Assembly: GCA_002269645.1 (NCBI GenBank)
Contig: NIVC01000616.1
Location: 62,001-126,000 of the forward strand
DNA from: Macrostomum lignano
Lineage: Eukaryota
DNA: 64,000 bases
Reading direction: 5' to 3'
This document shows positions 2,848 through 45,600 of the stretch, piece after piece (the stretch's first letter is position 1; the number at the start of each line of letters is the position of its first letter). Under the pieces are notes generated by a model, which saw nothing but the letters and a program-made list of their open reading frames with translations, ran no database searches and had not been told where the DNA came from. Made by a program: the position numbers and the translations under genes.

Positions 2848-3795
2848 ATGGATTTGTACGCTGTCCTCCAAGTCGGACACACAGCCGAACGTGCCGAGAT
2901 CAGGCGAGTCTATCGACAGCTAGCGCTCTTCTGGCACCCGGACAAGCACCCGGACAAGGAACTCGCAGGACGCCGTTTCCAAGAAATTGAGACTGCTGGT
3001 AGAATTCTATCGTGTCCATATCGCCGAGCGATGTACGACCAGTTGGGCGATAAATCAATCCCGTATGACGAGGCTGTAACCTTCGCAATGACGTTCATAC
3101 CTCCTACTGGTGTAAGAATGCCGGCGGACATCAAAGAGGGAGCACAGCAAAGGCGAGAAGTTGAAGAAGCTCAGCGCAAGGAAGCTGGTCTCAGGCAGGG
3201 GAGACAGGGACAGAGGAACGATTACGAAGCGGATGGCTACATTCTAATCTCGGACGACGATGAGAGCGAGGAGTCGGATGAGTGTAGCATCGACACAGAA
3301 GAAGAAGACGAGTTGCTGGCATCGGATGGCTCCTCCGGAAGTAGTGAGTCAGAAGCTATGGAGATCGATGTACCGGAAAGCAAGGAGGTTGTCTCACATC
3401 GCGCGTCGGGAGCAATATGGGATGATGAAAAGCTGTCGTTATCGGCAGCTGCGCGTCAGCTCCGCCATCGTTTGATGAAGCATATTTTGGCTGGACAGTC
3501 GGACGGAATCGTGTCAGTGCTCACGGCTATGAGACGGCTGTTTCGAGACTCACAGCGAGAACCGAGGAGCGCACTGTCAGTGGTCCTGCTGCAGGCGTTG
3601 TTCTTCATCCGCAGAGATATCGCTCCGGTAAAGCGTCAGAGAGCAGGCCGCCGTTACTGGTCTAGGCAGAGTTTTGATTGTTTCGTCCGACAGCTCTGTC
3701 ACGAGCTCATCCCGCTGTTCGGTTTGCGCCGGCCCGGCAGGCTGCTCGAGGTCCTGAAAAGCTGCGTCGGTCTCCCTGGACTTCGGGTTCGCTAG
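2848..3795 (+). CDS. J-domain (DnaJ/Hsp40-like) accessory protein inside the Gypsy element, 315 aa
   Basis: DLYAVLQV...IRRVYRQLALFWHPDKHPD...FQEIETAGRILS...RRAMYD is a complete J-domain with HPD; then an acidic tract and a helical C-terminus; ATG preceded by the acceptor-like ttgctttgcAG. Confidence 0.85.
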   Translation: MDLYAVLQVGHTAERAEIRRVYRQLALFWHPDKHPDKELAGRRFQEIETAGRILSCPYRRAMYDQLGDKSIPYDEAVTFAMTFIPPTGVRMPADIKEGAQQRREVEEAQRKEAGLRQGRQGQRNDYEADGYILISDDDESEESDECSIDTEEEDELLASDGSSGSSESEAMEIDVPESKEVVSHRASGAIWDDEKLSLSAAARQLRHRLMKHILAGQSDGIVSVLTAMRRLFRDSQREPRSALSVVLLQALFFIRRDIAPVKRQRAGRRYWSRQSFDCFVRQLCHELIPLFGLRRPGRLLEVLKSCVGLPGLRVR

Positions 3796-3918: not shown

Positions 3919-4410
3919 GTGCGGCGGCCACGTGCGCTTCCTGCCGGCTTCTGCGGCGGCCACGTGCGCTTCCTGCCGGCTTCTGCGGCGGCCACCGGCG
4001 CTTCCTGCCGGCTTCTGCGGCGGCCACCTGCGCTTCCTGCCGGCTTCTGCGGCGGCCACCTGCGCTTCCTGCCGGCTTCTGCGGCGGCCACCTGCGCTTC
4101 CTGCCGGCTTCTGCGGCGGCCACGTGCGCTTCCCGCCCGGCCATCTGCGCGCCTCGCCCGGCCGCCTTCGCGTCTTGCCGGCCACCTGCGTGCCCTGCTG
4201 GCCATCTGCGCGTCCTGTCGGCAACCTGCGCTTCCTGCCCGGCCATCTGCGCGTCCTGTCGGCAACCTGCGCTTCCCGCCCGGCCATCTGCGCTTCCTGT
4301 CGGCAACCTGCGCTTCCCGCCCGGCCATCTGCGCTTCCTGCCGGCCACCTGCGTGTCCTGTCGGCAACTTGCGCGTCCCGCCCGGCCATCTGCTCGTCCT
4401 GCCGGCCGCC
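3919..4410. repeat. GC-rich tandem repeats (~32-bp GCGGCGGCCACCTGCGCTTCCTGCCGGCTTCT, grading into a related unit)
   Basis: Directly visible; produces overlapping spurious ORFs in many frames. Confidence 0.9.
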
Positions 4411-4658
4411 TGCGATGGTTTTCTGTGCCGCCAGCTTTGAAAGCCTATTCCGTGCCCCGTGGTTGCTCCTGACGAACTCGCGTGCAGAATACTAGTACCT
4501 TTTTCATATTTCTCTTGCGGCAACCTTTTTTTTGCTTTTCCCTGTTGCATTAGTTTGTTCCCAATTTTTTTGTTGTTTTTGATAGTTTATTTCGCTTTGT
4601 TATTTCAAAATTTTTTGTCCCAGTCGCCGTGGTTCGAGCTCCGCCCTGTTTTTTTTGT

Positions 4659-4670
4659 AGGAGGGGAGGG
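4659..4670 (+). other. Polypurine tract of Gypsy element 1
   Basis: T-run then AGGAGGGGAGGG immediately before TGTAGT. Confidence 0.7.
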
Positions 4671-5540
4671 TGTAGTGCATGCGCCCTTGTCAGTTGGCAG
4701 GGCGCGTTGCACTTTGGGGCTGGTTGGGGGGGTTGGCGGGCGTGGCAGGGTCTGGCCCCGGCCGGGCTTTGCGCGTGCCCCTCCCCAGCCGTGCCCCTGC
4801 CCCGTGCTCAGGGCTGGTTGGCTGCGGCCGGGCCAGCTTTGGCGCGGGTGCAGCCCCTCCCCCCTTAGGCGGGGTTTTGATTGGCTGGGCCGGCGTGGTT
4901 TGTTTTGGTGAGCTTAGCCGGTGGGGCCGTCTGCCCCAGGGTTTGGGTGCTATTTATGGTGCGACTCTGGCTCTTGCCCACCACCTGCGTGCTTTTTGTG
5001 TTTTGGTGTGCTCCGAGAGTGCAAGCGCGAGACCTGATAAAAGAAACAGCAACATTAGCTACTTGGATAAAAGAAACACAATAGCCTAATTGAGAAGAGT
5101 CTTGGAGAATTAAGAAGAAGTCGGAAACTGCGCTTGAGACCAGCGAATAATAAACGGTGAACAGTCATCTGGCCACTGGTAAGCCGCCTGCTGTTTGAGT
5201 CCTTTCTTTCCGGGAAGCTTGCTAGGCCGAATTCTTGCCAGAGCGTCATAACGCCGGGAGACCATATAGCTTCTGTAGTACGGTACCGTTTACCATATAT
5301 ATTGCGTACGCCTTACGGTATAGAGAATAGAAGCACTCGAGAGTGTCACCACACCTCAAGCCGCAGCGTGAACTCTGAGTGTCACAACACCAGAGGGATC
5401 GAATTATTATCGCAGAGCGTCGCCACGCCTGCTCGTCGTATTCATAAAAGTACAGACAGAGCGTCACAACGCCTGTTATTTCACATATAATATATATTGT
5501 ACTCGGGACTGGGCACCCAAGCCGACCCGGGTTACAACAT
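4671..5540 (+). repeat. Putative 3' LTR of Gypsy element 1 (end uncertain)
   Basis: Starts with TG right after the PPT; TATA-like stretches at ~5295 and ~5490; partner LTR is outside the window. Confidence 0.5.
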
Positions 5541-5879
5541 TTTGTTTAACTTCAGCATAGAAGATTTTAACTATTATGCTGGCCTTACCATCGCACAGCT
5601 GATTCTGGAGCAAGCCGTGCTTGCTTTAGTCTATGTGACGGAGGCAGACAATTCAATTGGAATGATTGAACCGCCGACCAAGCAAAAGACGTGGCTTTGG
5701 CGGCTTTGGCAGCACTGATCAATAACTATATAATAAACTGATTTTTTGGTAATTGGTGCACTCTGCGGGTGCTTTGTAACACTAAGCAATTTAAAAAAAT
5801 TATGCCTAAATTTTTGAATAGCTTTTGAATACGTAAAAATAGCTTTAAAGATTGCAACAATTGAAATTAGAAAGGTTAA

Positions 5880-6209
5880 GAAGCAACAAGCTTTTGGTGT
5901 CGTAAATTGGCCAATTAACAATTTACCACTTGAAGCACATTTGCCCGGCGGATATCAGTTTTGTGGTCCAGGTACTCAACTACAAGCTAGGCTTGCAAAG
6001 GGACGAGGAATTAATCGGCTTGACATTTGTGCATGATTCACGACGTGGCCTATGATAAAAATTCTGACGTGCAAGAGAGGTTTAAAGCGGATAAGCTGTT
6101 TGTATTTGGTGCACAAGAGATTGCCCACGATCCATCTACTGGTTGGAGAGAAAAGCTGCTGCGAAGTTATAGGTTATGCATGCAAGTTAAGCAACGCTTT
6201 GGTGCTTGA
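5880..6209 (+). pseudogene. Parvovirus-VP1u-like PLA2 domain gene, frameshifted
   Basis: NWPINNLPLEAHLPGGYQFCGPGTQLQARL...INRLD / shift / CMIHDVAYDKNSD...RFKADK. Confidence 0.8.
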
Positions 6210-6245
6210 AAATGCACTCATACAATACGAGTATGCAGCTAGCTC

Positions 6246-6900
6246 ATGATTCTACATTTACGAGCTATTATTGCTGGACCTTCAAACTCGGGTAAAACTG
6301 AACGGACTTTGCGTTTGCTGACTCAACGAAAAGAATTATTTGATAAAAACACGCCTTGTTTGGTGCAATGGATCAAGTTTGAAATCAGACGAGCAACAAC
6401 AAATTAGAACATGCTGGGAAAAGACTGGCCTTGGCCCTATCGTTTTTGTGCCCGAATTTACGCCGCAGATGATTAATTGTTTTTTACCACACGATTTGCT
6501 TGTTGTTGATGACTTGCGAAGTGAGATTGCTAAGTTGCCAGAATTTACGAGCGTACTAGTATGTTTACAAAGCATGCGCATTATATTCCTTTGACTGGTC
6601 TGTATCTTTGACAAGGTCTTTTTAACCCATCTGATCCAGAAGCGCGCATGCGAAGTTTATCAGCTAGTTATATTTGTCTAACTCGTAGTGTGCACGATCG
6701 AACCACAGTTAAACATCTCGGTCGACAAATAATACTCAATAATACGATCAAAGAAAAACTATTGGGGTCGTGTTTGGGCAAAAGCAGACTTGGATGCTTA
6801 CGTTTCCTGGCAACCGTACGCGTCTGGTACAGATGAAAAATTTGCCTGGCTTTTACGAAATTCAGGTGAAAAACTATTGGGTTAGAACTACCAGTTACAT
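6246..6900 (+). pseudogene. A32/FtsK-like packaging ATPase, frameshifted
   Basis: Walker A IIAGPSNSGKT at the start, Walker B LLVVDDL, then SASYICLTRSVHDRTTVKHLGRQ. Confidence 0.75.
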
Positions 6901-6949
6901 TTAGGGAAGCTTTCAAATTTGACTTTTAGAAGAAACTTTCTGGATTAGT

Positions 6950-7412
6950 CTCGGAAAAAAATTACCAAAGCCTACCGCTGGCAGTGTACTATTGTGTTCT
7001 ATCGCCTGGTGATTCTACAAGACTTGTTTCGCTATCTATCTATTTATCTATTTTTGGAGACTATCTTCAAAAAACGGAAGGAGAGATTGTACATCAAACT
7101 ACACCAATATTGGTTGAGAAATCGTATTTGGCACAATAACAAAATTTACTTGGATGATGTGTAATCGAGTATTAAGCAGTGGGAAGTACATCAGTACCGT
7201 TGCTTCGAGTTGTGGAACTCCGACAAAAGAAAAACGGAGAACTTGTACGCAATAGCAGTGCATTGCGAACGCCCTGCTATTTGAAAACAAATCGAAAACA
7301 AATCCAAGAGATTTCTATTCGACTGTCGGACCAGCGCGGAAAGCCGTTTAATTTTCATCCTAAAGCACACGTTTTTTTCGTACTGCATTTTAGACGTAGG
7401 TCTAACTTATAA
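6950..7412 (+). pseudogene. Minor capsid (penton) gene remnant
   Basis: C-terminal PLLRVV...ISIRLSDQRGKPFNF...FVLHFRRR matches the Polinton penton tail. Confidence 0.6.
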
Positions 7413-7539
7413 GCAAAGATTAATTGTTTTAAAGAAAATTTAGTGAATTTCTTTTGTAAGAATGAGCGAACTAACAGAAAAAGGAAAACGAAATGCTCGC
7501 TTGTTGTGTCAATGTGCTTTTCTACTTCAAATTGTGTGT

Positions 7540-7886
7540 TGGCTAAAGCATCCAAAGCAGAGAAAAAGTTTTTTTTAAATACTTTCAGAGTCTGAGATAC
7601 GGTGTCTAGTAGACTGTTTAATATTATTAGTGGTCATAATAAAATTAGTAACAGTAACAAAAGACGACTTGAGAAGCATCGCAGATATATAAGTTAGCTT
7701 TTGGAACAGAAGACTCCAATTACTGCAAAAAAGAAAATTCTTGTCCAGCACGGAGGATTTTTACTTTTTTGGCTCCAATAATTGCTGCTCTACCAGTTAA
7801 AAGCACTGCGCTTGGGATAACGTCTGGAGTAGTTGGTACCGCCGCGGGAGGAGCAAATGTAATACGATCAATTAAACGAAAGTAGG
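7540..7886 (+). pseudogene. Basic core-protein-like gene remnant
   Basis: KKKILVQHGGFLLFLAPIIAAL: basic tract, GG, then hydrophobic segment, typical of Polintons. Confidence 0.6.
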
Positions 7887-8691
7887 AATGCGAGCTAAGG
7901 AGAGTAGTAGTTTTCAACGAATGTACCATTAGTACCTGAATCTGTATCAATCTACATGTCAGGGTGTAGAGCAAGGACAACCAGCTGAGGTACCTCGAAA
8001 AACTGAGACATGCCTCAAGATGCTCTTTCAAAAAATATGATGGAAATGAGAGATCAAATGGATAACTTGGACAAGGAAATCGAAAAGGAGCGGATTGGAA
8101 GACAAACTTTTAAAATTGCGCAGAGTCTATCGCGCAACAACGAGGACAAGGACAGCGAACCGCTTGTTCGCAAAGGAACTAATGTAAGAAGTAATACAAG
8201 TGGCAAATTTCTAAAGTTTTTTTTACCATGCTTCGAAGCTCTCACGCAAAGTCTATTTTCGGACACGAATGCAGAACCAATGCCGGCTAATCTGACTGAT
8301 GTCGAGATACAAGATCTCATGGAATGTGTTGTTCAAGACAAATCGCTTAAGTGACACAACCGACTAAAACAATTTTTATGATTTTAATGATTTTAAAATG
8401 CATTTAAAATGCACAGGACTTTCATAGCTATTTGTAATGTAAATCAAGATAGAAAATCATAAACAGCGCGACACGAAGACGCAGCTCTAATCCAAATCCT
8501 CTATACTAAAAATATAAAGCTATATAGCTTCTATAGTAGCTGTTACTATTACTGAAAAGTACATATCAATGTGTATAAATTTTCTAAATAATTATCTAAG
8601 TACTAAGAATAGTAATGCTAAGAATATGCTAAACAATTCATAAAGTTTTATATCCCGTAAACCAGACATGCTCATTTAAGGACAACACTAC

Positions 8692-22315: not shown

Positions 22316-23228
22316 AGTAGAAGGCATGAGGGAGCTTCTGGGACAAAATTTTTCACATCCTCCATAATCCCATTAAATCCATCCATATTATCTCTGACAG
22401 AATCAGAAAAAAAGGGGGGTCGCACTCGCTCACAAAACGTCCTCCATAATCCCATCAAATCCATCCATATTATCCCCGACAGAATCATGAAAAAGTGGAG
22501 GGGTCGCACTTGCTCTGAAAACTTCGAACATAATCCCATTAAATCCATCCATATTATCCCCGACAGAATCAGACAGTGGACACCTGTTATGTTCACTGAC
22601 ACTGACATAATCCACTGACATCCACCCATAGCATCTTCGAAACAATCAGAAAAAAAATCTGCATTCTTCTCCCCACATTCAATCCGAAGCGGCGAAACCA
22701 GATCCCTAAGACTTTAAATTATCAGCGCAGGGTCCTTACCCTTTGAAAAAAAAATAAATTCTCAATAAAAATGTTTCCAGTCGTCTCTCCAGGTTCTTAT
22801 TATACTCAGCCTCATCCATTGTACAAATCCAAGTACCGATGCAAACTAGAATGCAGCGAGTACATGAGAAAATATTGGCCCAACGTTGATATCAATGATA
22901 TGATATCTAGCTCTCCAAAGACACTGGTTTCATAAGTATGGAGTAACCTACGTAAAAGATTACGACAGCTACTATAACTTTGCAGAAATCATTAAGCAAT
23001 TGCGTTAAAAACTGAAAGGCCAAAAGGCCAAAAGGCCAAAAGGCCAAAAGGCCAAAAAGGCCAAAAGGCCAAAAGGCCAAAAAGGCCAAAAGGCCAAAAG
23101 GCCAAAACCCTTTTCATTTTGGCCTTGCGCGAGGCCGAAATCCTTTGCATTCTGGCCTTCACTCGAGACGGAATTCTTCCCCGGCTGGGCTCAGTTAAAG
23201 TGAAAATCTCTCTCCCCCCACGCGCGCT
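22316..23228 (+). repeat. Left terminal inverted repeat of the Polinton
   Basis: Imperfect reverse complement of 36252-37238; ~80-bp subterminal repeats and a GGCCAAAA run. Confidence 0.9.
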
Positions 23229-32709: not shown

Positions 32710-33894
32710 TTATTTTTTGTTGAACCGCGAAAGCAGAAGCTCTCTCGCCCTCTTATCGATGTATTTTCTCTCAAGCATTTTGTCCAGGATGTTGAAAAAT
32801 TCTTTTCTATTCTCGTCTTTCATTCCGGTCTTTGCCGCTCCTAGAAGAACCGCTACTCGCTTGTAGATTTCAGCTATTCCTTTTCCAGATTTGGGTGGTT
32901 GGTCTTGAGGTTGTGGAGTTGGTTGGGCTTGTAGCTGCTGGGGAGGTGATGCAAAAGACTGCTCACTTTCAGAGATGGAACTGTCATGTGGTGCCTGTCT
33001 TTGTTGAGGTGTGAAAACTCTTTGCTTGATTCTGTTCATTCGATCTGGAGAGTGTTGTTCTAAGTGTTGCCAGTCTGTCGGGTGATCATTTTTATATTTA
33101 GCTACTTGAGTCGGATCTGCATTTTCCAGTTGCCTGAGTACTTGTTCTTCTGTGAAATGTTGCTGCTGTTGTGGCGATTGCTGTTGTTGCTGTTGTTGTT
33201 GTGGTTGTTGTCTTATGACCTCTTCCTGATCCGGCAAACCAAACCATTGTTTAAAGTATTTGTATTTTCTAAATCTGTTCAAGACAATCCAGTTTTCATG
33301 TAAAATTTTCAAAACACCGTTGTTCTTGAGCATATCTATATCCCTATCGAGAGCAAAGGTAACAAGATCTTTGTAATTTTTGAGCTGCTTTTTAGACGTA
33401 TTCTCTAGATTTTTAGTCATGTAATCAAGTAAAGTTTGAGTGAACTGGATTCTTTTAGTTTTTGCGCCTTTATTGATTGAAATGTTTTCCTTTGTCACTT
33501 CAATGTTGTAATCCGCCGGTTCCCCGGTAATATTTTTTCGCCAGGCGCTAATTCCAAAAATATATTTTCCATCATCCACTACGGGGCCAAAAAAGTTATC
33601 CGTCACTTTCATCTGCACCGGTTGTCCTGGTTCCTGAGCCTGTGGTTGTCCTGGTGAAGATGGGATTTTACCCAATGTGTTTTGCAAGTGGCTCTCTTGA
33701 ATATCATCAACTGCTTCCTTCACAGTGTCGAGGTTTTTCTTCGCTTCTGTGTATCCGGGTTTGTGAAATTCGGTGGCTGCTTGGACAAACTCATTGTAGG
33801 ATTGTTGCTCCTTATTTATTAGCCCGGTAACTCGTTTCTCTGCTTGTGCTAGCTTCTCCAATTCAGATATCTGCTGTGTACTTTTTCGCTTCAT
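32710..33894 (-). CDS. Conserved Polinton protein of unknown function, 394 aa, with polyQ
   Basis: C-terminal GKG...RVAVLLGAAKTG...EFFNILDKML resembles a common Polinton C-terminal domain. Confidence 0.7.
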   Translation of the reverse strand: MKRKSTQQISELEKLAQAEKRVTGLINKEQQSYNEFVQAATEFHKPGYTEAKKNLDTVKEAVDDIQESHLQNTLGKIPSSPGQPQAQEPGQPVQMKVTDNFFGPVVDDGKYIFGISAWRKNITGEPADYNIEVTKENISINKGAKTKRIQFTQTLLDYMTKNLENTSKKQLKNYKDLVTFALDRDIDMLKNNGVLKILHENWIVLNRFRKYKYFKQWFGLPDQEEVIRQQPQQQQQQQQSPQQQQHFTEEQVLRQLENADPTQVAKYKNDHPTDWQHLEQHSPDRMNRIKQRVFTPQQRQAPHDSSISESEQSFASPPQQLQAQPTPQPQDQPPKSGKGIAEIYKRVAVLLGAAKTGMKDENRKEFFNILDKMLERKYIDKRARELLLSRFNKK

Positions 33895-33924
33895 TTCTTA
33901 TTTTATTTTATTTTTAGTTAAAAA

Positions 33925-35211
33925 ATGAACGACCCACTGACACCAGTTTTCTACAAAATTAACAAGCCTATTTTGAGTGATGATAGCAAAATCAAAGCGA
34001 CTCAGGTAAGAGTTCCCAGTCAGGAAAATCAGAATGAAACTAATCTTGGTCCTGGCCAAACACTGACATTTACATACAATGGATGTTCGTCTTTGGTTAG
34101 TGTGCACAGTCTTAAGAGCGGCTTCCATATGACATTTCAATTCAAGACAAAGGGTGGTGCGGATGCGGCTTGTGCTAACGTTGACAAGCATGATGCGGAT
34201 GTGGCTCTGATCAGTAACTTTTGGGCGTACATGTTCAAGGAGTTTAGTGTATCGAATGGGAGCACTGAGTTGGAGCGAATCGCCAACTTTGGAATTGTCT
34301 ATGACGCTCATTGTTTGATCGAGAATCCTGATTTTATTCAGTTGAGAAGTGGTGCGGGTTTTATTGCAGATGAAAAAGAAGGAGATATCAATGACAGTGG
34401 CTATAAAAAGAGGAAGAAGAGATACAACTATGCATTGCAAGGTGCTGATGATGCTGCTAAGAACCCGCTGTATCGGTCTGTTGATGTATTTGTACCATTG
34501 AGATTCATGAGTGGATTCTGTAATACATTTAATCGACTGACTAGTAACTTTAGCTACACTTTTAAGATGACTAGAGATGATCGCAGTAGAGTGTTGTGGA
34601 CTGGGGCGGACCACACAAGGATGGAGGTGAAGCTAACCGGAATCGAGCTGTATTTGGAAGTCATTGAGTCAAAGACCGCACTAAAAGCAGACTATCTTAA
34701 GGCAATAGAGAAGGACATTGATGTTGCATACACGGCCTACATGTGTCGAGATGAGCGAAACGAAACTAGAACAAACATCTGCATTAAAGAGGGATCATGC
34801 AGCAATCCACAGTATATCATTATTAACATGAGAAACCCAAATAGCATTATACGCTACATGCATGGAGACGTGCGGTCCATTCAGCATGAAATCAGTGATA
34901 ATCTTTACCCTGCACTGCCACAAAATGGAGATTTCAGTCAGAACAAGATTAGCAAATTTTACAGCGAGTTGGTCGACTTGGCTGTGAAAGAGAACAATGG
35001 AATTGCTATCACTGCTCTTCAATATGGAACTCTATATCCGATGTTTGGCGCTGATGTGTCTGCCAGACAAATGCCTACTGATAACAGCCCTGTGAATATC
35101 GTGACTAACATTGAAAGGACTGCCGCAACACCCGTGGACCTGTACATTATCTATGCATTTGAGAGGAAGGTGAAGCTTAACATGATCAACAATTCATCCA
35201 GTAAAGTTTAA
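33925..35211 (+). CDS. Major capsid protein (double jelly-roll), 428 aa
   Basis: Beta-rich composition, FKEFSVSNGSTELE, VFVPLRFMSGF, NLYP, FGADVS; size and position next to the penton; no frameshift. Confidence 0.8.
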   Translation: MNDPLTPVFYKINKPILSDDSKIKATQVRVPSQENQNETNLGPGQTLTFTYNGCSSLVSVHSLKSGFHMTFQFKTKGGADAACANVDKHDADVALISNFWAYMFKEFSVSNGSTELERIANFGIVYDAHCLIENPDFIQLRSGAGFIADEKEGDINDSGYKKRKKRYNYALQGADDAAKNPLYRSVDVFVPLRFMSGFCNTFNRLTSNFSYTFKMTRDDRSRVLWTGADHTRMEVKLTGIELYLEVIESKTALKADYLKAIEKDIDVAYTAYMCRDERNETRTNICIKEGSCSNPQYIIINMRNPNSIIRYMHGDVRSIQHEISDNLYPALPQNGDFSQNKISKFYSELVDLAVKENNGIAITALQYGTLYPMFGADVSARQMPTDNSPVNIVTNIERTAATPVDLYIIYAFERKVKLNMINNSSSKV

Positions 35212-35234
35212 ATATTTTTTTGTGGGTGAAAAAA

Positions 35235-36098
35235 ATGGAAGCCATAGCCGAAAGACTAAACAACATTGTTTCTCACTCTAAGGAGAGCATTCCTATTACA
35301 ATAACCGGGCGAATTAATGACTCAAACGGGATGTTTGTTGAAAAATTAGAGCAGGCGATTCGCCTGGATCCAGGCGCTAATTACCATGTCTATATTAACG
35401 ACTTCACTGGTTGGTCAAACGTTCCCAATGTGATGGCAGCAAATAATAAGTTTTATTACAAATGGAAAGGTGCAGCAGCAGACCCTGTGGTATTCCATGT
35501 GAGCACGCAAAGTGTGGATACCTACAATAACTTTCTAGAAAATGTCTTTACTAAAAGAGGCCATTTTGAGACACCTGATGCGAGTAAGCCAGAGAAGAAA
35601 CTGTTCCCTGTCAAACTAACCTATGATCTCACTGTAATGAGAGTGGTCATGCAAGTTCACAAAGATGCGGAGGTTGAGTTTAAAGATGACACTTGGTATA
35701 GGGAACTGGGATTCGAGAAGAAAGTTTATAAGGCAGAATCCACGGCGCGGACCGCCACTCAAGCATCGGGGACCGTTAAAATGGCCCGGGAAAATGTAAG
35801 TGGTTTGTTCTTAGCACCCAATATTGCAGACATTGTAAAGGGTTTGAATATTCTAATCAGAAGCAATCTCAGTCTTGATTGGGTATTTAAGGGAAAGCGA
35901 ACGAATATTTTGTACAACATCTCTAACTCTGTTGCTGGAGGACAGATGCTGGTAGAGAAACCAAATCCAGTGAAAAGAGTAGTATTGAGTAATAAGGAGA
36001 TTCACGAGATTGTGTTACAGTTTGAGACTGAAGATGGGGTGGGTGTTGATTTCAACGGTGAAGAGTTTGTACTGACGTTGATCATTGAGAGAATGTGA
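35235..36098 (+). CDS. Minor capsid protein (penton)
   Basis: NNKFYY, IRSNL...NILY, terminal EDGVGVDFNGEEFVLTLII motif. Confidence 0.85.
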   Translation: MEAIAERLNNIVSHSKESIPITITGRINDSNGMFVEKLEQAIRLDPGANYHVYINDFTGWSNVPNVMAANNKFYYKWKGAAADPVVFHVSTQSVDTYNNFLENVFTKRGHFETPDASKPEKKLFPVKLTYDLTVMRVVMQVHKDAEVEFKDDTWYRELGFEKKVYKAESTARTATQASGTVKMARENVSGLFLAPNIADIVKGLNILIRSNLSLDWVFKGKRTNILYNISNSVAGGQMLVEKPNPVKRVVLSNKEIHEIVLQFETEDGVGVDFNGEEFVLTLIIERM

Positions 36099-36251
36099 GA
36101 AAATGCGTTCCCCTTTTAAGTATTCTTGCCGAGAATAGAGTGGTATGAAAAATGCGCGCATGTGTACTCAAAATCTCTTACCCCATTCTCACAGGTTGTG
36201 GGCGCGGGCGTCTCGTGTGTGGGGGAGAGGGGAGTGTATGTGTGTGGGTGC

Positions 36252-37238
36252 AGCGCGCGTGGGGGGGAGAGAGATTTTCACTTTAACTGAGCCCAGGCGA
36301 GGAAGAATTCCGTCTCGAGGGAAGGCCAGAATGCAAAGGATTTCGGCCTCGCGCAAGGCCAGAATGCAAATGATTTTGGCCTTTTGGCCTTTCGGTTTTT
36401 TAACGCAATTGCCTAATGATTTCTTCAAAGTTATAGTAGCTATCGTAATCTTTTACGTAGGTTACTCCATACTTATGAAACCAGTGAGGTTTAAGTGCTT
36501 GTTAATATTAGGGACATTGATATCAACACCGGGCCAATATTTTCTCATGTACTCGCTGCATTCTAGTTTGCATTGGTACTTGGATTTGTACAATGGATGA
36601 GGCTGAGTATAATAGGAACCTGAAGAGACAACTGGAAACATTTTTATTGAGAATTTAATTTTTTTTCAAAGGGTAAGGACCCTGCGCTGATGATTTAAAG
36701 TCTTAGGGATCTGGTAGCATGTTGTGGATTGAATGTGGGGAGAAGAATGCAGATTGTTTTCTGATTGTTTCGAAGATGCTATGGGTGGATGTCAGTGGAT
36801 TATGTAGGACACCTGTTATGCTCTGATTCTGTCGTGGAGGAAGGAGGATAGGTTAGGGGGATTATGGATGACATTTTGTGAGCGAGTAGGACACCTGTTA
36901 TGCTCTGATTCAGGGATAATATGGATGGATTTAATGGGATTATGTTTGAAGTTTTCGGAGCAAGTAGGACACCTGTTATGCTCTGATTCTGTCGGGGATA
37001 ATATGGATGGATTTAATGGGATTATGGAGGATGTTTTGTGAGCGAGTGCAACCCCCGCCCTTTTTTCTGATTCTGTCGCGGATAATATGGATGGATTTAA
37101 TGGGATTATGTTCGAAGTTTTTGGAGTAAGTGCGACCCCCCTTTTTTCTGATTCTGTTGGGGATAATATGGATGGATTTAATGGGATTATGGAGGACGTG
37201 AAAAATTTTGTCCCAGAAGCCCCCTCATGCATTCTACT
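36252..37238 (-). repeat. Right terminal inverted repeat of the Polinton
   Basis: Imperfect reverse complement of the left TIR; ends CTACT. Confidence 0.9.
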
Positions 37239-39326: not shown

Positions 39327-40292
39327 ATGTCTATTGCCAGCAGTCGTGCTTCAATGGCACCACCTGACGATGGTGCTGGAGCAGGAGCTGAGGAACCGGT
39401 ACTAGGCGAACGTCTCGATCGTCTCGCCGATGCACTGGAGCGCCAGCTTGGTATAGGCCAAGTCAGGCAGCATGTTAAGATGGCCAAATACACGCCATCC
39501 CAAGACATCCGCACGTGGATCAAAGCCTTCGATCTTCGCTGCGATACCGAAGACATTCGTGCCTGCCACAGGAAGGCGGAGTTGCTCGCCAACCTTGACG
39601 TGCACACGGCGTATGCTTCGGTCTTGCGCCTGAACTTGCCAGATCATCTGGATTATGAAGAGTTTAAGGAAGCGCTGATTGAGAGATTCTCAAAGAGAGG
39701 CGGCTCACAGGAATTCCGAGAAGATTTCCGCTGCCGAACTCAGCGCAAGAACGAGGACATTGACGAGTTTGCAGATGCTCTCCGCGAACTCGGAGAACTC
39801 GCTTATCCTTATCTCTTGCCAGCTCAGCTCGAATCAGAACTTGTTGATCAGTTCCTGAAAGGTGTCAGAACTACAATTGAGGCGAGAGAACGGCTGTACT
39901 GGGGTCGTCCAGAGACTCTACAGGACGCCAAGTTCGCCTTCAAGCGCATCGAGACAGCGCGTGAGCTTGCTGCCCGCAGCAAAGACGCACCCTGTCGCAG
40001 CCTTGGTGGGGACAAAGCTACGGTTCCCCGACAGGACGATGAGCTTAAGAATCTAATCAGGCATCAGAATGAGGTTCTGCAGAAGCAGCAGCAGATGCTT
40101 GAGCAGCTTCTCAAGCAGACGCCAGCCGCACCTGTCAGAGATAGGCTGCAAGGCATTGTGTGCCACGAGTGCGGTAAACCAGGTCACAAGAGGCCTGACT
40201 GTCCTAAGTTCAAGGCTCAGAAGCCGGGAAACGTCCGGGCGGGGGTTGCCAACCAGGACCCTCTCCAGGGCCAACCCCCGAAGTCGCACTAA
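39327..40292 (+). CDS. gag: Gag with CCHC zinc knuckle
   Basis: CHECGKPGHKRPDC; QRKNEDIDEF, LVDQFLKG retrotransposon gag-like motifs. Confidence 0.92.
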   Translation: MSIASSRASMAPPDDGAGAGAEEPVLGERLDRLADALERQLGIGQVRQHVKMAKYTPSQDIRTWIKAFDLRCDTEDIRACHRKAELLANLDVHTAYASVLRLNLPDHLDYEEFKEALIERFSKRGGSQEFREDFRCRTQRKNEDIDEFADALRELGELAYPYLLPAQLESELVDQFLKGVRTTIEARERLYWGRPETLQDAKFAFKRIETARELAARSKDAPCRSLGGDKATVPRQDDELKNLIRHQNEVLQKQQQMLEQLLKQTPAAPVRDRLQGIVCHECGKPGHKRPDCPKFKAQKPGNVRAGVANQDPLQGQPPKSH

Positions 40293-43200
40293 AGCAGTCT
40301 GGAGAGTCTGGCGATACCGTAGACTCTTCTTTTGTAAATAATGTATATAACTCTGGTGCTGATCCTTATGTAACTGCGCTTATTTTCGGCCAACAGGTTC
40401 CCTTGCTTCTCGACAGCGGGAGCAGACTGAACCTGATGGGCCTTTCTACTTGGCGATTGTTATCGCGCAGTACTGCACATGCATGCGTAGTTACACCTAC
40501 TTATTCTGATCGTATTCTAACCTATGATGGTTCTGAATTACAGCTAACCGGTAAGGTTATGCTTGATGTTGTCTTCGGAGATTTCTCAGCTGAAGCTGAA
40601 TTCTACATTGTAAGCGGCGATCAGGAGAATCTCCTAGGCATTGATTTTATGAGGAAGCACTGTCGGACCTTGGAGTTCCAGACAGGAATGCTTACCCTCA
40701 CTACTGGTACTTGTGTACCTGTGCGCTATACGCGCCGTGAGCCAACCTCGTGCAGAGTCTATGTTGCCGGAAAACATCAGATTCCTGCTCGAAGTTCTGG
40801 CCTTATATCTGTGCAACTGGCACGTGGCAAAGAATCGAATTATGGAGTGCCAGCAGTGGTTGAACCACTCAGATCTGGACTCCGCGCTGGGCTTTCCCAG
40901 GTCCGCGCATCTGCAGCATTGGTAACGATGCATGAAGGCAAAGGCTACATGGAAGTCGTTAATCCTAACAACTTTCCGATTAATATAGCCAAAGGAGCCT
41001 TGGTGGGCCTTGCCACACCGCTCCGGACGCAAGACCTCGAGTACTATCCAGAACTGAAAGCAACACCTGTGCGTAAGTTGCACCTAGACGATAACATCAA
41101 TTCAGCCAGTGACGATTGGATCAATGAGATAGAGATAGGCGATTCGATCACGGAGGACCAGAAGTCCCAGGTTCGAGAGCTGATCAGAGAGTCGCGTAAT
41201 GCGTTCTCCACGCACACTCTTGATCACGGTCTGACTCACCTGGTGACCCATCAGATCGTCATGCGGGACGAGACTCCAGTTAGGATCCCAGCTCGCAGGG
41301 TCCCCCCGCACTTGCAGGATCAGGTCAATCAGCTACTAGATGAGATGCTAGAGAAGGGCTTGATCAGGCCATCTTATTCAAGCTACAGCTCTCCTATCTT
41401 AGTAGTGCCTAAGAAGGACAAATCTGTCCGCATAGTCCATGACTATCGCGAGCTGAATGAGAAATGCGAATATCGCCCGTATCCGTTGCCATCTATCCAG
41501 GAGACGTTTGCATGTCTCCGTGGATCTCAATGGTTCAGCAGCTTGGATCTTGCTCAAGGGTTCTATCAGATCCCGTTGCGTGAAGAGGATCGTTTTCGCA
41601 CAGCCTTCTCAGTGATCAATCGAGGTCAGTTTGAGTTCAACGTCTTGCCTATGGGGCTTCGCGATAGCCCTGGAGCCTTCCAGCGATGCATCAATATGCT
41701 GCTAGACGGTATCACTAAGTTCGCCTTAGGATACATGGATGACATTGTCATTCATAGTATTGCCTTCGAGGAGCACCTCGAACATCTTCGCGAAATGTTC
41801 AGGCGGCTCATTGAAGCCAATCTTAAGCTAAAGCCACGCAAATGCCATCTGTTTAAGACAGAGTTGCACTATCTCGGACATGTAGTCGATAGACGAGGCA
41901 TTAGGACTAATGAAGACAAGGTACAGCAGATACTAGACTGGCCGCGTCCTCAGACAGTCAAGCAGCTGCAGAGCTTTCTAGGTCTCTGTAACTACTATGC
42001 CAAATTCGTCAAGAATTACGCCGAAATTGCTGCCCCGTTGCATCAATTGACTCGGAAGAACCTTGTTGGGTTCAAGGGGCTCTGGACAGAGCAACACTCG
42101 AAAGCTTTCGATGAGCTCAAGAAGAAGCTGTGCTCTACTGAGGTCCTCGCGTACCCAGAGTACAACACAGACCCAGACACAGTCTTCGTCCTGGATTGTG
42201 ATGCCTCCGGTTTCCGAATCGGCGCCTGTTTAGGCCAGCGCCAATCCGATGGTGCGGAGCGGCCTGTTGCCTATTTTAGTCGGAAATTGCGCGAGCCTGA
42301 AACGAGGTACAACAACACCAAGCGTGAGCTTTTGGCCGTTGTTGACTCGATGAGGCATTTTCGATATTACTTAATCGGCAAGAGATTTGAGGTTAGAACA
42401 GACCACAGGGCTCTTCTTTGGCTCATTCGCCAGACTGAAGCCGAAGGGATCTTGGGTCGTTGGGTCGAACGGCTAAGTGAATTCGACTTTGCTGTCATTC
42501 ATCGGAAGGGAAGTTTGCACCAGAACGCAGACAGCTTATCAAGAAAGCCGGACGGTCCGGAGTTCGATGACTGTCGTCCTGGAGCACGGACACCCAACCA
42601 GACAGAAAATGAGGCCACTGTACCCTCAGCCCTCGGATTAGTCGAAGACGCCGACCAAGTAACATCCAGCAGTTCTGCCTCGCAGGAATCTCGTATTGCC
42701 GTCGCCGGCTCATCATGTTGTCCCTCAGTGGACCGATGTCCGACACCCGTTATCGCGGCCGTTTCTGCCGACTCAACATGTTGTTCCTCAGTGAACCGTT
42801 GTTCGGCTGGAGCGTCTGAGGCTGTCTGCCAGACTGATGCGACATGTTGTCCCTCAGTGGACCGCCGCTCGGAATGGGCAGCCAAGGTTGCTGGTTTAGC
42901 TGTGGACTTTGCCCCAGTTGGACGCCACACTACCGCACCTACGGCCATAGAAGCTGTTCGCCCTCGTGTCTCAGGTGACCTGACCGCAGGAATCCGGACC
43001 GACGACGCAGCAAGGCCATTATCTGCTTCAATAACGGAATCAGCGAACCGTAGCGTTAGTGAGGATGTCCCTCCACGCTGTCGTGTTCTGCTTAGTGATT
43101 TTCTGTCCGAACCTCTGAAGCGAGACCAACTGCTCCTCGAGCAGCAGAAGGACCCGGACATTGAGTTCGTCAGAAATCTTTTAGCGACTAGTTCGCCCAA

Positions 43201-44764
43201 GCCGTCCTTTGACGCCCGACTACGTCTTAGTAGGGATACGCGCAACCTACTAGGCTACTTTGATATGTTGCGGCTAGTAGACAACCTGCTCGTCTACGAT
43301 GAAGACATAGCAGACCGTCCACCGCGCATTGTGCTGCCGAAGAGTCTAGATGACCAGGTGTTCAAAGAGCTCCATGATGCTCCCTTGAGTGGACACCTTG
43401 GCGAAACTAAGACCTATCTTCGGGTTAGACAAAGGTTTTGGAGGCCGTCTTTGAGCAAAGCGGTTAAGGCCTACGTGGCCCGATGTCGAGTTTGCCTGGA
43501 GAGCAAGACTCGCCGTCGCGAAGCCGTGCCTGTGCAGAGCTTCCCAGTCTGTGAAGTGATGGGGCGGCTACACTGCGACGTTGTCGGCCCAATCTCGCAG
43601 CCTTCGCGAGCTGGCCACCGCTATATTCTGACGCTATGCGATGCTACTTCAAAATACCCTTTTGCGTTCCCTATGCGGAACCAGAAGACCAAGACCGTAG
43701 TCAAGATTCTTCAGGAAAGATTGTTTCCGGAGTACGGTGTACCAGCGTGGCTGCACACCGACCAAGGAACGAATTTCACTGGAAAGGACTTTAAGAAGTT
43801 TTGTGAGCTGTACGGCATTAGGCACACGACTACAACGCCGTATAATCCTAGTTCGAATGGCCAGGTGGAAAATCTCAACAAGACAATCAAGAGTGTACTC
43901 ACGTGCTTGCTGGAGAAGAATCACCAAGATTGGGATACCTTCCTCCCAGCATGCATGATCGCTCTGCGATCTAGCGTTCACCCGGTTACAGGGTTTACGC
44001 CCTACTTCTTGGTCTTTGGAAGAGAATTCCGGATGCCCATTGATAATGAGCTTCGGGTCCCACCTGAATATCCGGACTTGCCAACGTACGTCCAAGACTT
44101 CCAGAAGAGACTAGAGGAAGCTAATCAGTTAGCCCAGGACCGTGTGAAGCTGCATCAAGAACTTCGCGATGAACATTATGAGAATCGCCCGAAGGCCAAG
44201 CAGCTCTCACCGGGTGACCTAGTCTTCTTGAACAATCCAGTCTTAGATCAGTCTTGGGAAGCGCAGAAATTTCACAGACCGCGCAAGGCTGTGTATGAAG
44301 TAGTAGAGCGCAAAGGAGAAGTTGTCTACAAGATCAGACCTCGCCTCCGGAATCCTAGGGCTCGTCGAGAGGAGTTGGTGGTGCACCGTCGCAATATGCT
44401 ACCGGTTCCGCAAGCTGACTATCCAGAGCCAGCTGGCCGGGCAGCTGAGCACCGTGCTGGGCCGCCGCGTAAGCCTCGCGTTGCCATAGAAACCACTGCC
44501 TCTCAGAATACCGGCGAAGTCGCCGATGACGTTGACGAGCTCGATGACGATAATGACGACTGGGCTCCGCGCTACTTTCTGCGTCCGGCCGCAGCACTAG
44601 CAGCGATCCCAGAAGTCGCCGAACCTGAAATGAATAAAAATGGGGTAGCTGTTCATGAGCAACCTGAAACACCTAGGGACATAGAACAGCCCGAAGCGGT
44701 GCCCCGGACCCTCAGCCTGTTGCTGAGCGCCCGCGGAGAGACCGCCGAGCCCCAGATAGACTAA
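40208..44764 (+). CDS. pol: Gypsy Pol (protease, RT, RNase H, integrase), intact, -1 frame to gag
   Basis: LLDSGS, YMDD, VLDCDAS, HDAPLSGH/CRVC, HCDVVG, TDQG, VENLN. Confidence 0.97.
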   Translation, partial: VQGSEAGKRPGGGCQPGPSPGPTPEVALKQSGESGDTVDSSFVNNVYNSGADPYVTALIFGQQVPLLLDSGSRLNLMGLSTWRLLSRSTAHACVVTPTYSDRILTYDGSELQLTGKVMLDVVFGDFSAEAEFYIVSGDQENLLGIDFMRKHCRTLEFQTGMLTLTTGTCVPVRYTRREPTSCRVYVAGKHQIPARSSGLISVQLARGKESNYGVPAVVEPLRSGLRAGLSQVRASAALVTMHEGKGYMEVVNPNNFPINIAKGALVGLATPLRTQDLEYYPELKATPVRKLHLDDNINSASDDWINEIEIGDSITEDQKSQVRELIRESRNAFSTHTLDHGLTHLVTHQIVMRDETPVRIPARRVPPHLQDQVNQLLDEMLEKGLIRPSYSSYSSPILVVPKKDKSVRIVHDYRELNEKCEYRPYPLPSIQETFACLRGSQWFSSLDLAQGFYQIPLREEDRFRTAFSVINRGQFEFNVLPMGLRDSPGAFQRCINMLLDGITKFALGYMDDIVIHSIAFEEHLEHLREMFRRLIEANLKLKPRKCHLFKTELHYLGHVVDRRGIRTNEDKVQQILDWPRPQTVKQLQSFLGLCNYYAKFVKNYAEIAAPLHQLTRKNLVGFKGLWTEQHSKAFDELKKKLCSTEVLAYPEYNTDPDTVFVLDCDASGFRIGACLGQRQSDGAERPVAYFSRKLREPETRYNNTKRELLAVVDSMRHFRYYLIGKRFEVRTDHRALLWLIRQTEAEGILGRWVERLSEFDFAVIHRKGSLHQNADSLSRKPDGPEFDDCRPGARTPNQTENEATVPSALGLVEDADQVTSSSSASQESRIAVAGSSCCPSVDRCPTPVIAAVSADSTCCSSVNRCSAGASEAVCQTDATCCPSVDRRSEWAAKVAGLAVDFAPVGRHTTAPTAIEAVRPRVSGDLTAGIRTDDAARPLSASITESANRSVSEDVPPRCRVLLSDFLSEPLKRDQLLLEQQKDPDIEFVRNLLATSSPKPSFDARLRLSRDTRNLLGYFDMLRLVDNLLVYDEDIADRPPRIVLPKSLDDQVFKELHDAPLSGHLGETKTYLRVRQRFWRPSLSKAVKAYVARCRVCLESKTRRREAVPVQSFPVCEVMGRLHCDVVGPISQPSRAGHRYILTLCDATSKYPFAFPMRNQKTKTVVKILQERLFPEYGVPAWLHTDQGTNFTGKDFKKFCELYGIRHTTTTPYNPSSNGQVENLNKTIKSVLTCLLEKNHQDWDTFLPACMIALRSSVHPVTGFTPYFLVFGREFRMPIDNELRVPPEYPDLPTYVQDFQKRLEEANQLAQDRVKLHQELRDEHYENRPKAKQLSPGDLVFLNNPVLDQSWEAQKFHRPRKAVYEVVERKGEVVYKIRPRLRNPRARREELVVHRRNMLPVPQADYPEPAGRAAEHRAGPPRKPRVAIETTASQNTGEVADDVDELDDDNDDWAPRYFLRPAAALAAIPEVAEPEMNKNGVAVHEQPETPRDIEQPEAVPRTLSLLLSARGETAEPQID
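40226..40306 (+). promoter_or_regulatory. -1 programmed ribosomal frameshift signal (G GGA AAC + stem/pseudoknot)
   Basis: Heptamer in gag phase; pol frame (-1) open from 40208; stem CGGGGGTTG/CAACCCCCG 7 nt downstream. Confidence 0.8.
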
Positions 44765-44766
44765 TA

Positions 44767-45600
44767 ATGAATCCTAGAGCTAAATCTTATGTTGCTAGGA
44801 TCAGGGATGCGCTCGCCTCTTCAATAAGGCGCTTCTTTCCGCATTCCAGCACCATCATGAGCGAGGACGAGATGCCTCTAGAGCAGCAGCTCTCTCTGTC
44901 AGCTTCGAACGACTCTTTCGAGCCGATCGAGTCATCATCACCGCGTCCCGATGAAGGGCGGGTGAAGACCCAGCCAACGCCAATACCGTCTGGCCCGCCG
45001 GTTACAGCGCCCATCGGCATTACCCGCCGTACATTATTGCGAGTCGACACGAACGTCCAGGCTGTGGCCGGGCCTCAAACAGAGCCAACCCCTAGGAAGA
45101 CGGCCCTGTTGGAGAAGCCCCCGGCCAGAGGCCGGGCAGCGGCAGGACCATCGAGGAGTCGCTCCCGGCAGCGCGCGGCCAACTGGCAGCCCGCTGGACG
45201 GCCGACGGCCTTGGAAAGGCTGGGAGGGCGAAGCCGCTCCCCTCCTAGCAAGGTGGCACCGGCCAGCAGTGGCGGGACGGCCTGTAGCAGCCAGTCGCAG
45301 CCGGCCAGGGAGCCTATCAAGCAGATGATCGCGGCCATTCTGCTGAAAGCCGCGTATACCGGAGAAGTAACGGCCTGGTCCACACCGCAAACCATTGCAC
45401 TAAAGGCTATGGCCGAGGATGAGCGGCGCGCCCTCATCAACGAAGCCTTCACGAGAACGCGCTCTTTGCTCATGCCATATCGGCATTACGCCGTGGCGTT
45501 GGAGGCCGCAGTACGCAGAGCAGCTCAAGATCTCGGCCGCATGCCGGCCCTATCAGCCGAGGCCCTCGCTCTGCTGAATACGGCGAGGCCGGCCCATTAA
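44767..45600 (+). CDS. Non-env accessory ORF3 (disordered P/R/S-rich N-part, helical C-part); may start at 44858
   Basis: Begins 2 nt after the pol stop; uninterrupted; no signal peptide or TM segment apparent. Confidence 0.55.
   Translation: MNPRAKSYVARIRDALASSIRRFFPHSSTIMSEDEMPLEQQLSLSASNDSFEPIESSSPRPDEGRVKTQPTPIPSGPPVTAPIGITRRTLLRVDTNVQAVAGPQTEPTPRKTALLEKPPARGRAAAGPSRSRSRQRAANWQPAGRPTALERLGGRSRSPPSKVAPASSGGTACSSQSQPAREPIKQMIAAILLKAAYTGEVTAWSTPQTIALKAMAEDERRALINEAFTRTRSLLMPYRHYAVALEAAVRRAAQDLGRMPALSAEALALLNTARPAH

Follow-up and report, generated by a model that had tools for sequence, protein, structure and literature searches.

A Ty3/Gypsy retrotransposon at the start of the window (the whole stretch of Macrostomum lignano DNA analyzed here, 64,000 nucleotides) carries, between pol and its 3' LTR, an open reading frame (ORF3) for a J-domain protein. 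The sequence-only reading had taken this gene for J-domain cargo that a Gypsy lineage carries where env would lie, and that view is upheld: ORF3 is present in many copies, lies within LTR pairs, is retained in at least six families, and is under purifying selection. That it is a real, functional gene is close to certain. Our preferred reading of its role, to which we give a probability of about 45%, is that the ORF3 protein is a nuclear Hsp70 adaptor acting against SUMO- and heterochromatin-based silencing, so that the element stays transcribed. The word "domesticated," used for ORF3 in the earlier reading, has the direction wrong, because the element captured a J-domain and the host did not domesticate an element.

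The Element That Carries ORF3

The window opens within pol; upstream of it lie the 5' LTR, PBS, and gag of the ORF3 element together with the protease and most of RT. With the adjoining contig DNA included, the complete Ty3/Gypsy element is 9627 bp long, and its parts follow in the order 5' LTR, PBS, gag, pol, ORF3, minisatellite, polypurine tract (PPT), and 3' LTR. There are 314 open codons in gag and 1528 in pol, which is in the −1 frame; a CCHC knuckle in gag and a DSG motif of the protease are present, and the Pfam domains are arranged as RT, RNase H, and integrase. An 18-nucleotide PBS-like sequence, which we take to be a match to tRNA-Lys, begins 3 nucleotides past the 5' LTR. The LTRs are 868 and 869 bp long, both are bounded by TG...CA, and the 5' copy lies 8.76 kb upstream of the 3' copy. 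By its LTRs and target site duplication (TSD), its PBS and PPT, and its gag-pol order, the element belongs to Ty3/Gypsy. This copy, of the family designated A, is intact and very young (LTRs 99.8% identical, 4-bp TSD). The features within the window, including the parts of ORF3, are the following.

1–2433, + strand: 3' portion of pol, from the end of RT through RNase H and integrase (Pfam RVT_1, RT_RNaseH, Integrase_H2C2, rve)
2838–2847, + strand: predicted splice acceptor with its AG abutting the ATG (sequence ttgctttgcAG; putative use)
2848–3795, + strand: ORF3, 315 residues, class C J-domain protein (ORF call, Pfam, AlphaFold)
2848–3042, + strand: J-domain, residues 1–65 (Pfam DnaJ, E = 5.3e-18)
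3205–3441, + strand: acidic disordered linker, 79 residues with 27 D/E and 4 K/R (AlphaFold, charge count)
3238–3264, + strand: SUMO-interaction-like motif YILISDDDE, residues 131–139 (pattern across families, post hoc)
3427–3792, + strand: C-domain, unnamed, five helices (AF2 pLDDT 91.3, pTM 0.84; aligned across families)
3920–4414, + strand: minisatellite of 32-bp/20-bp units in the interval from ORF3 to the PPT (repeat length differs among copies)
4659–4670, + strand: PPT (from the sequence)
4671–5539, + strand: 3' LTR, bounded by TG...CA; TATA-like box, 4951; donor-like GTAAG, 5179 (identity to the 5' LTR 99.77%)
5540–5543, + strand: TSD, TTTT (flank comparison)

The boundaries from which ORF3 had been placed inside the element, namely the pol stop at 2433, the PPT at 4659–4670, and the LTR start at 4671, are confirmed, and ttgctttgcAG is present directly before the ATG. 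The sequence from 4671 onward is the 3' LTR and matches the 5' LTR at 99.77%, where a mismatch had been named as telling against ORF3 as cargo.

Two stretches of Polinton-like DNA are also present in the window. The first, at 5540–8400, is decayed, is apparently the target into which the ORF3 element inserted, and has a PLA2-like FCGPG motif near 5960 that was recognized by eye. The second, at 22316–37238, is a Polinton/Maverick-like element with long terminal inverted repeats and Pfam matches to PLA2-like, adenoviral protease, A32 ATPase, and double-jelly-roll domains; a polymerase-like gene split across two ORFs was recognized by eye at 25371–29103.

Architecture of the ORF3 Protein

ORF3 is uninterrupted over its 315 residues (2848–3795, + strand). 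Residues 2–64 align with positions 1–63 of the Pfam DnaJ profile (E = 5.3e-18), the HPD motif is encoded by codons 30–32 (2935–2943) between helices II and III, and the best PDB sequence matches of the domain are the J-domains of DNAJB2, HCG3, and Escherichia coli DnaJ. The AlphaFold model comprises four J helices (block pLDDT 90–95), a disordered region (residues 122–198), and a folded helical C-domain. The complete J-domain first read from the sequence, with its four helices and HPD, is thus borne out by profile and model, and the same holds for the acidic linker and the helical C-domain without a known fold, on the evidence of the model, charge counts, and structure searches. With regard to class, a four-helix HPD domain of ∼63 residues is present; a G/F-rich region, a zinc finger, and a DnaJ C-terminal domain are absent, DnaJ being the sole Pfam domain to pass in ORF3. 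As judged from sequence and model, the architecture is that of a class C J-domain protein. The J-domain, the linker, and the five-helix C-domain are common to all families described below.

The C-domain has a net basic character (25 K/R and 8 D/E), with a basic loop encoded at 3631–3660. A K/R-rich loop recurs in all aligned family rows, and the family alignment places a conserved Trp with this arginine-rich loop. No Foldseek match to the fold was found at E ≤ 0.001 in the PDB or BFVD. The best VIA match (Z 8.1, rmsd 3.6, 98 aligned residues) is within the range of common helical arrangements, as is the second (Z 8.0, rmsd 2.2, 76 aligned residues), which is to B12-cap-like bundles; the lead from the ESM Atlas, DnaJ-X, scored 0.76, under the mark of 0.9. 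In searches of the genome and of protein databases, the C-domain was seen only among ORF3-like sequences.

No membrane segment was found in ORF3, where the maximum 19-residue hydropathy is 1.45 and falls within the folded helical bundle; the corresponding maxima (KD19) are 1.08–1.49 in the ORF3s of six of six families. ORF3 is therefore not env, and an env-like identity was rejected despite the env position.

Copies of Family A

A DNA search of the genome with ORF3 gave 33 matches, 24 of which are near full length at 98–100% identity. The reading frame is open through 315 codons in 20 of these 24; an internal stop interrupts one, and the remaining three are shifted by deletions. The HPD motif, whose conservation across copies had been singled out as informative, is intact in all 24. 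An LTR pair flanks ORF3 in 17 of the 18 family A copies examined with their flanks; absence of ORF3 from other copies had been named as contrary evidence, and these 17 carry it within their LTR pairs. Matching 4-bp TSDs, all different from one another, were found in 12 of the 15 copies with both ends located, so most copies are independent insertions and not duplicates of the assembly. ORF3 accompanies 25 of 28 matches to the family A integrase; of the other three, two end inside integrase and one has a LINE-like insertion behind pol. The family A copy with the insertion (L120, C33) has a LINE-like RT ORF directly behind pol, with no ORF3 in the stretch examined.

Distribution among Families

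A protein search of the genome yielded many intronless relatives of ORF3 at 29–36% identity. Families A, B, C, D, E, G/K, H, and I all have the gene in the interval that separates pol from the 3' LTR; apart from A and B, these families differ in their LTRs and PBSs and have pol sequences 42–55% identical to that of family A. Nine further J matches are ordinary host genes that are not in an element setting.

The RT trees were built from genome copies and database proteins, with no named Ty3/Gypsy reference RTs. In an RT-RNase H tree that leaves out L2, L3, K_C517, and out_C89, the ORF3 families make up one side of a branch (93/95). When 14 database pol proteins were included, the ORF3 families and two JGI pol proteins formed the starred clade (100/96), in a tree that leaves out L2, L3, K_C517, out_C89, out_C17, out_C73, out_C464, G_C441, E2_C1165, and C1_C1138; E3_C349 was left out of a further tree as too short. 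At least six divergent families, with ORF3s ∼30% identical, carry the gene in this one RT clade. Lineages L (C23, C1405, C4067, C272, C952, and C10) and M (C3200) lie inside the clade without ORF3, one ORF3-less lineage inside the clade has near-identical LTRs, and C2475/C109 retain only the TatD-like 3' end of the gene. The second Gypsy element of the window (39327–45600), which has gag, a 1442-residue pol, and its own 277-residue ORF behind pol, falls outside the ORF3 clade on the RT tree; no J-domain or C-domain match was found in the 277-residue ORF, and no LTR pair of this element was found in 36–52 kb.

Families A and B are 92% identical in pol (dS 0.25) but 69% identical in ORF3 (dS 1.2), a contrast between sequences that suggests exchange of the ORF3 module between lineages. 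Copies of family B are found at L040/L041 (C94) and L042/L043 (C2590). In a J-domain tree of 101 columns, the retroelement rows fall into two groups and not one, and the tree does not single out a host gene as donor of the J-domain.

A profile search of 1.84 billion proteins returned, among the matches listed, two chimeric M. lignano gene models with ORF3-type sequence, three Logan proteins and one JGI protein in which J-domain and C-domain are combined, a further protein from each of these two sources with a match on the C-domain side, and one full-length Logan cluster member; the remaining rows, inspected or judged by match range, are J-domain-only. The JGI proteins P0159 (pol) and P0006 (ORF3-type) both derive from a 7008-base contig, and each groups with family C on its respective tree; they are likely to be parts of one element of another organism. 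A homolog search with residues 60–315 of ORF3 gave none among 3996 candidates. In locus scans outside the genome, P0006 found no loci in metagenomes, the C-domain alignment and P0163 found none in viral contigs, and P0159 found four distant pol loci, all without ORF3.

Selection on ORF3

Values of dN/dS were obtained by the Nei-Gojobori method for 13 ORF3 pairs, with bootstrap 95% bounds. They range from 0.08 to 0.34 in 12 of the pairs, the remaining one being saturated at synonymous sites, and the upper 95% bounds are all below 1; several of the partners are dead copies, and the values are therefore biased upward. Between families A and B, the ratio for ORF3 is 0.18 (0.12–0.25) and is lowest in the J-domain (dN 0.094, dS 0.80). 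The A-versus-B value for pol, 0.43, comes from a broken copy and was hence not used as a baseline. Polymorphism within family A, with 7 synonymous and 9 non-synonymous distinct changes, is too young for a test of selection. Of 17 retroelement-type rows, 15 have the HPD motif. It is missing from family I (8 copies inspected), and yet the ORF3 of this family gives ratios of 0.29–0.34; recruitment of Hsp70 is therefore not essential everywhere.

Linker Motif and Additional Modules

The linker sequence YILISDDDE resembles the general consensus of a SUMO-interacting motif (SIM). The pattern [IV]x[IV][SE][DS][DES] occurs in 12 of 18 retroelement-type rows and in none of nine host J proteins, in a post hoc count on the same sequences from which the pattern was derived; shuffles of each matching linker yield it in 0.5–4%. 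Of the six rows without it, three belong to the chromodomain family, one to family I, and two are truncated frames. In a predicted complex of linker residues 118–158 with the SUMO of this genome, the score was 0.47 as compared with 0.02 for the best control, with runs agreeing in at least 87% of contacts and a partner pLDDT of at least 50. Of the solved pairs, 51 of 78 reached the pass mark, as did 2 of 108 mismatched pairs; in this benchmark, which is not of peptides, passes at 0.60 or less account for 5 of the 78 solved pairs and for all four passing mismatches. Structures of SIM-SUMO complexes have already been solved, so the pass may show likeness to solved complexes only. The model lends weak support to binding of SUMO by the SIM-like motif. 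An intronless SUMO-like gene (L160–L165) has seven equal-scoring matches in the genome.

In family E, a chromodomain (Pfam E = 1.4e-12; best PDB matches Swi6 and HP1) sits between the J-domain and the C-domain, and the SIM-like motif is absent there. The third aromatic position of the HP1/Swi6 cage is occupied by Val, which makes the reading of methyl-lysine doubtful. An ORF3 of this kind is found at L105:7436–7606; family E has ∼26 near-identical matches, its ORF3s are annotated in NCBI as hypothetical BOX15_Mlig001265 proteins, and the same order of J-domain, chromodomain, and C-domain recurs in a Logan relative (P0003). In families G/K and I, ORF3 ends in an added TatD-like domain, whose Pfam match (E = 4.9e-05) falls short of the curated cut-off; families A, C, D, E, and H do not have it. 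Extended genes of this type are located at L125:7099–8772 (family I) and in the G/K copies C525, C441, and C517.

Signals for Expression

An AG directly abuts the ATG of ORF3 in families A, B, C, F, and E and lies within 16 nucleotides in families D, H, and I. In G/K, the junction is AG|TG, and ORF3 has no ATG of its own (L089 (C441), L092/L093 (C525), and L133 (C517)). A GTAAG sequence lies 116–228 nucleotides after the TATA-like box in the seven LTRs measured and is preceded by A in G/K, where splicing is therefore predicted to create the start codon. About one GTAAG per LTR is expected by chance, and that of family I lies upstream of the TATA-like box. These signals predict a spliced subgenomic RNA that would join a donor in the LTR to the AG before the ORF3 ATG, an RNA of the kind that PMC5408684, in the available text, ascribes to the ORF3s of other LTR elements. 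Among 24 listed sequencing runs, 19 contain the stretch, and 14 of those are guessed to be RNA. Contigs of three guessed-RNA runs and of one run of unspecified kind span 2847/2848 without a joint or loose end, in a comparison for which the donor is outside the compared stretch and in which contigs drop rare forms, so that it bears neither way on splicing or expression.

A three-unit heat-shock element (HSE), perfect or with one mismatch, was found in none of 11 LTRs of the clade. The clade is therefore not among the heat-induced families of PMC12801592, and a heat-shock link of the ORF3 elements was rejected.

Proposed Function and Its Alternatives

In class C J-proteins, other domains choose the client and the HPD fires Hsp70, according to the available text of PMC10410713. 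For ORF3 we envisage the following steps. Splicing would join a 5' LTR donor to the AG that precedes the ATG and so produce a subgenomic RNA. Nuclear entry or chromatin binding would be provided by the C-domain's basic loop, and the acidic SIM-like motif, or the HP1-like chromodomain in family E, would address the protein to silenced chromatin. There the HPD would stimulate Hsc70 and a bound repressor would be released, in the manner of the SV40 T-antigen J-domain on Rb-E2F. SUMO-dependent silencing of transposons occurs in animals. The SIM-like motif, the HP1-like chromodomain, and the basic domain point to silenced chromatin, and for this reason nuclear anti-silencing is favored. The sequence-only reading had offered VLP assembly, RT activation, or counter-defense; as far as can be judged from this anatomy (SIM-like motif, chromodomain, and basic loop), counter-defense is favored over the other two. 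A fuller version, which we hold only tentatively, is that of a modular protein in which a captured J-domain is directed by exchangeable targeting parts, be it a SUMO-binding motif, a chromodomain of HP1 type, or a TatD-like domain, and would strip SUMO/heterochromatin repressors from the element's own loci by means of Hsc70. On the other side, acidic linkers can be plain spacers, and family I without HPD and lineages L and M without ORF3 count against an anti-silencing role, as do the two separate groups of retroelement rows in the J-domain tree. J-proteins act at chromatin in Arabidopsis (DNAJ1/2 with SUVH1/3, and SILENZIO). Because silencing, too, can be promoted by J-proteins at chromatin, anatomy does not fix the direction in which ORF3 would act.

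It is rather unlikely that ORF3 is instead a private co-chaperone for replication, bringing Hsc70 to Gag or Pol for RT folding, particle assembly, or uncoating. Hepadnaviral RT needs Hsp40/Hsc70, and an intact HPD J-domain adjoining gag-pol would suit such a role; env-like ORFs of plants have been proposed as replication chaperones in the available text of PMC7264820. However, this role leaves the family E chromodomain and the SIM-like motif unexplained, ORF3 is dispensable in close relatives, and the gene appears to move apart from pol (the A/B identities of 92 versus 69%), which is unexpected for a partner tuned to Gag or RT.

The chromodomain and the basic domain would equally fit a chromatin tether that guides integration, or a self-limiter that recruits repressors and so limits copy number, with Hsc70 as a remodeling aid. 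Chromodomains are known accessory domains of LTR elements (PMC6338049, available text), and the SIM of LANA recruits SUMOylated KAP1 and represses the KSHV genome (PMC12434695, available text). We consider this explanation improbable, since only one family has the chromodomain, which there resides in an ORF distinct from that of integrase, and since families A, D, and E are young, with ∼15–26 matches each.

The arginine-rich loop with its conserved Trp could also belong to a Rev-like or anti-small-RNA factor, in which the C-domain would bind the RNA of the element and aid its export or shield it from piRNA/siRNA. Loading of piRNA/siRNA complexes needs Hsp70/Hsp90 chaperones, and families G/K and I have a TatD-like nuclease fold (sub-threshold in Pfam); nuclease ORF3s are known in bdelloid elements from the available text of PMC5408684. 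No RNA-binding fold was recognized in ORF3, however, and the TatD-like domain is missing in A, C, D, E, and H, which makes a role of this type still less probable.

Finally, although relatives of ORF3 are publicly annotated as host "J domain-containing protein" and the gene occupies the env position, a neutral host retrocopy carried along by a single element, or an env-like gene, is an extremely improbable identity for ORF3, because ORF3 is kept across ∼30%-identical families with dN/dS well below 1, has no membrane segment, and has a C-domain confined to ORF3-like sequences; the one-off neutral retrocopy, which had been named as refuting the cargo reading, is excluded by the ratios below 1 (0.08–0.34) and by retention in LTR elements of multiple families.

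Relation to Known Systems

Non-env ORF3 cargo is already known as a kind, and a J-domain as such cargo appears to be new. The available texts describe DEDDy exonuclease and GDSL esterase ORF3s in LTR elements of bdelloid rotifers (PMC5408684), and sense aORFs in plant LTR elements (PMC7264820); an m6A demethylase is reported as cargo of orchid Ty3/Gypsy elements (PMC9289625). The present gene resembles these in being a third ORF located downstream of pol and ahead of the 3' LTR, in its family-specific gain and loss, in the swapping of modules, and in expression thought to proceed via a spliced message, but differs from them in its cargo, a co-chaperone that joins a J-domain to a SIM-like linker and an as yet unnamed helical domain. 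The available texts of PMC5408684 and PMC7264820 do not mention "DnaJ." Full-text literature searches, and searches of the M. lignano LTR paper and preprint by term, found no J-domain cargo in LTR retrotransposons, a scope that stops short of Biryukov et al. 2020, Repbase/Dfam, and preprint supplements, which could mention the ORF.

SV40 T-antigen chaperone activity disrupts Rb-E2F, according to a title cited in the available texts of PMC10410713 and PMC13254874. ORF3 is similar to the polyomavirus T antigens in that a parasite encodes an N-terminal HPD J-domain followed by an acidic linker and a candidate short motif for selecting clients. Unlike them, it has no LxCxE, origin-binding, or helicase domain, its motif is SIM-like, and its carrier is a retrotransposon. 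With class C J-domain proteins it shares the combination of a J-domain with targeting modules and the lack of G/F, zinc-finger, and beta-sandwich domains, and it differs in being element-encoded. The main text of a survey of 280,000 J-protein sequences (PMC10410713) does not contain the strings "transpos," "retro," "viral," or "chromo." Family E is like the chromoviruses as a Ty3/Gypsy element that encodes a chromodomain, but places it within ORF3, whereas the chromovirus domain is at the C terminus of integrase; no Pfam Chromo match was found in family A pol.

The available text of Ustyantsev et al. 2025 describes 137 families of M. lignano LTR retrotransposons, with heat-shock elements in LTRs (PMC12801592), and the ORF3 elements are probably among these families. 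Its heat-induced families bear HSEs in their LTRs, in contrast to the ORF3 clade, and its main text does not mention DnaJ, Hsp40, ORF, chromodomain, TatD, or splicing.

Significance

To our knowledge, few element-encoded counter-defense proteins are known for animal LTR retrotransposons, and ORF3 is a candidate that is clade-wide, is preserved by selection, and has a J-domain whose biochemistry is readily testable. Natural variants with and without the chromodomain, with the HPD lost, and with ORF3 lost can serve as controls. The host is amenable to transgenesis and RNAi, and LTR reporters work in it (PMC12801592, available text). Some "host" J-domain proteins of M. lignano in NCBI and UniRef are transposon genes, which corrects their annotation. 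If the modular anti-silencing reading is true, an animal retrotransposon would employ a strategy like that of T antigen.
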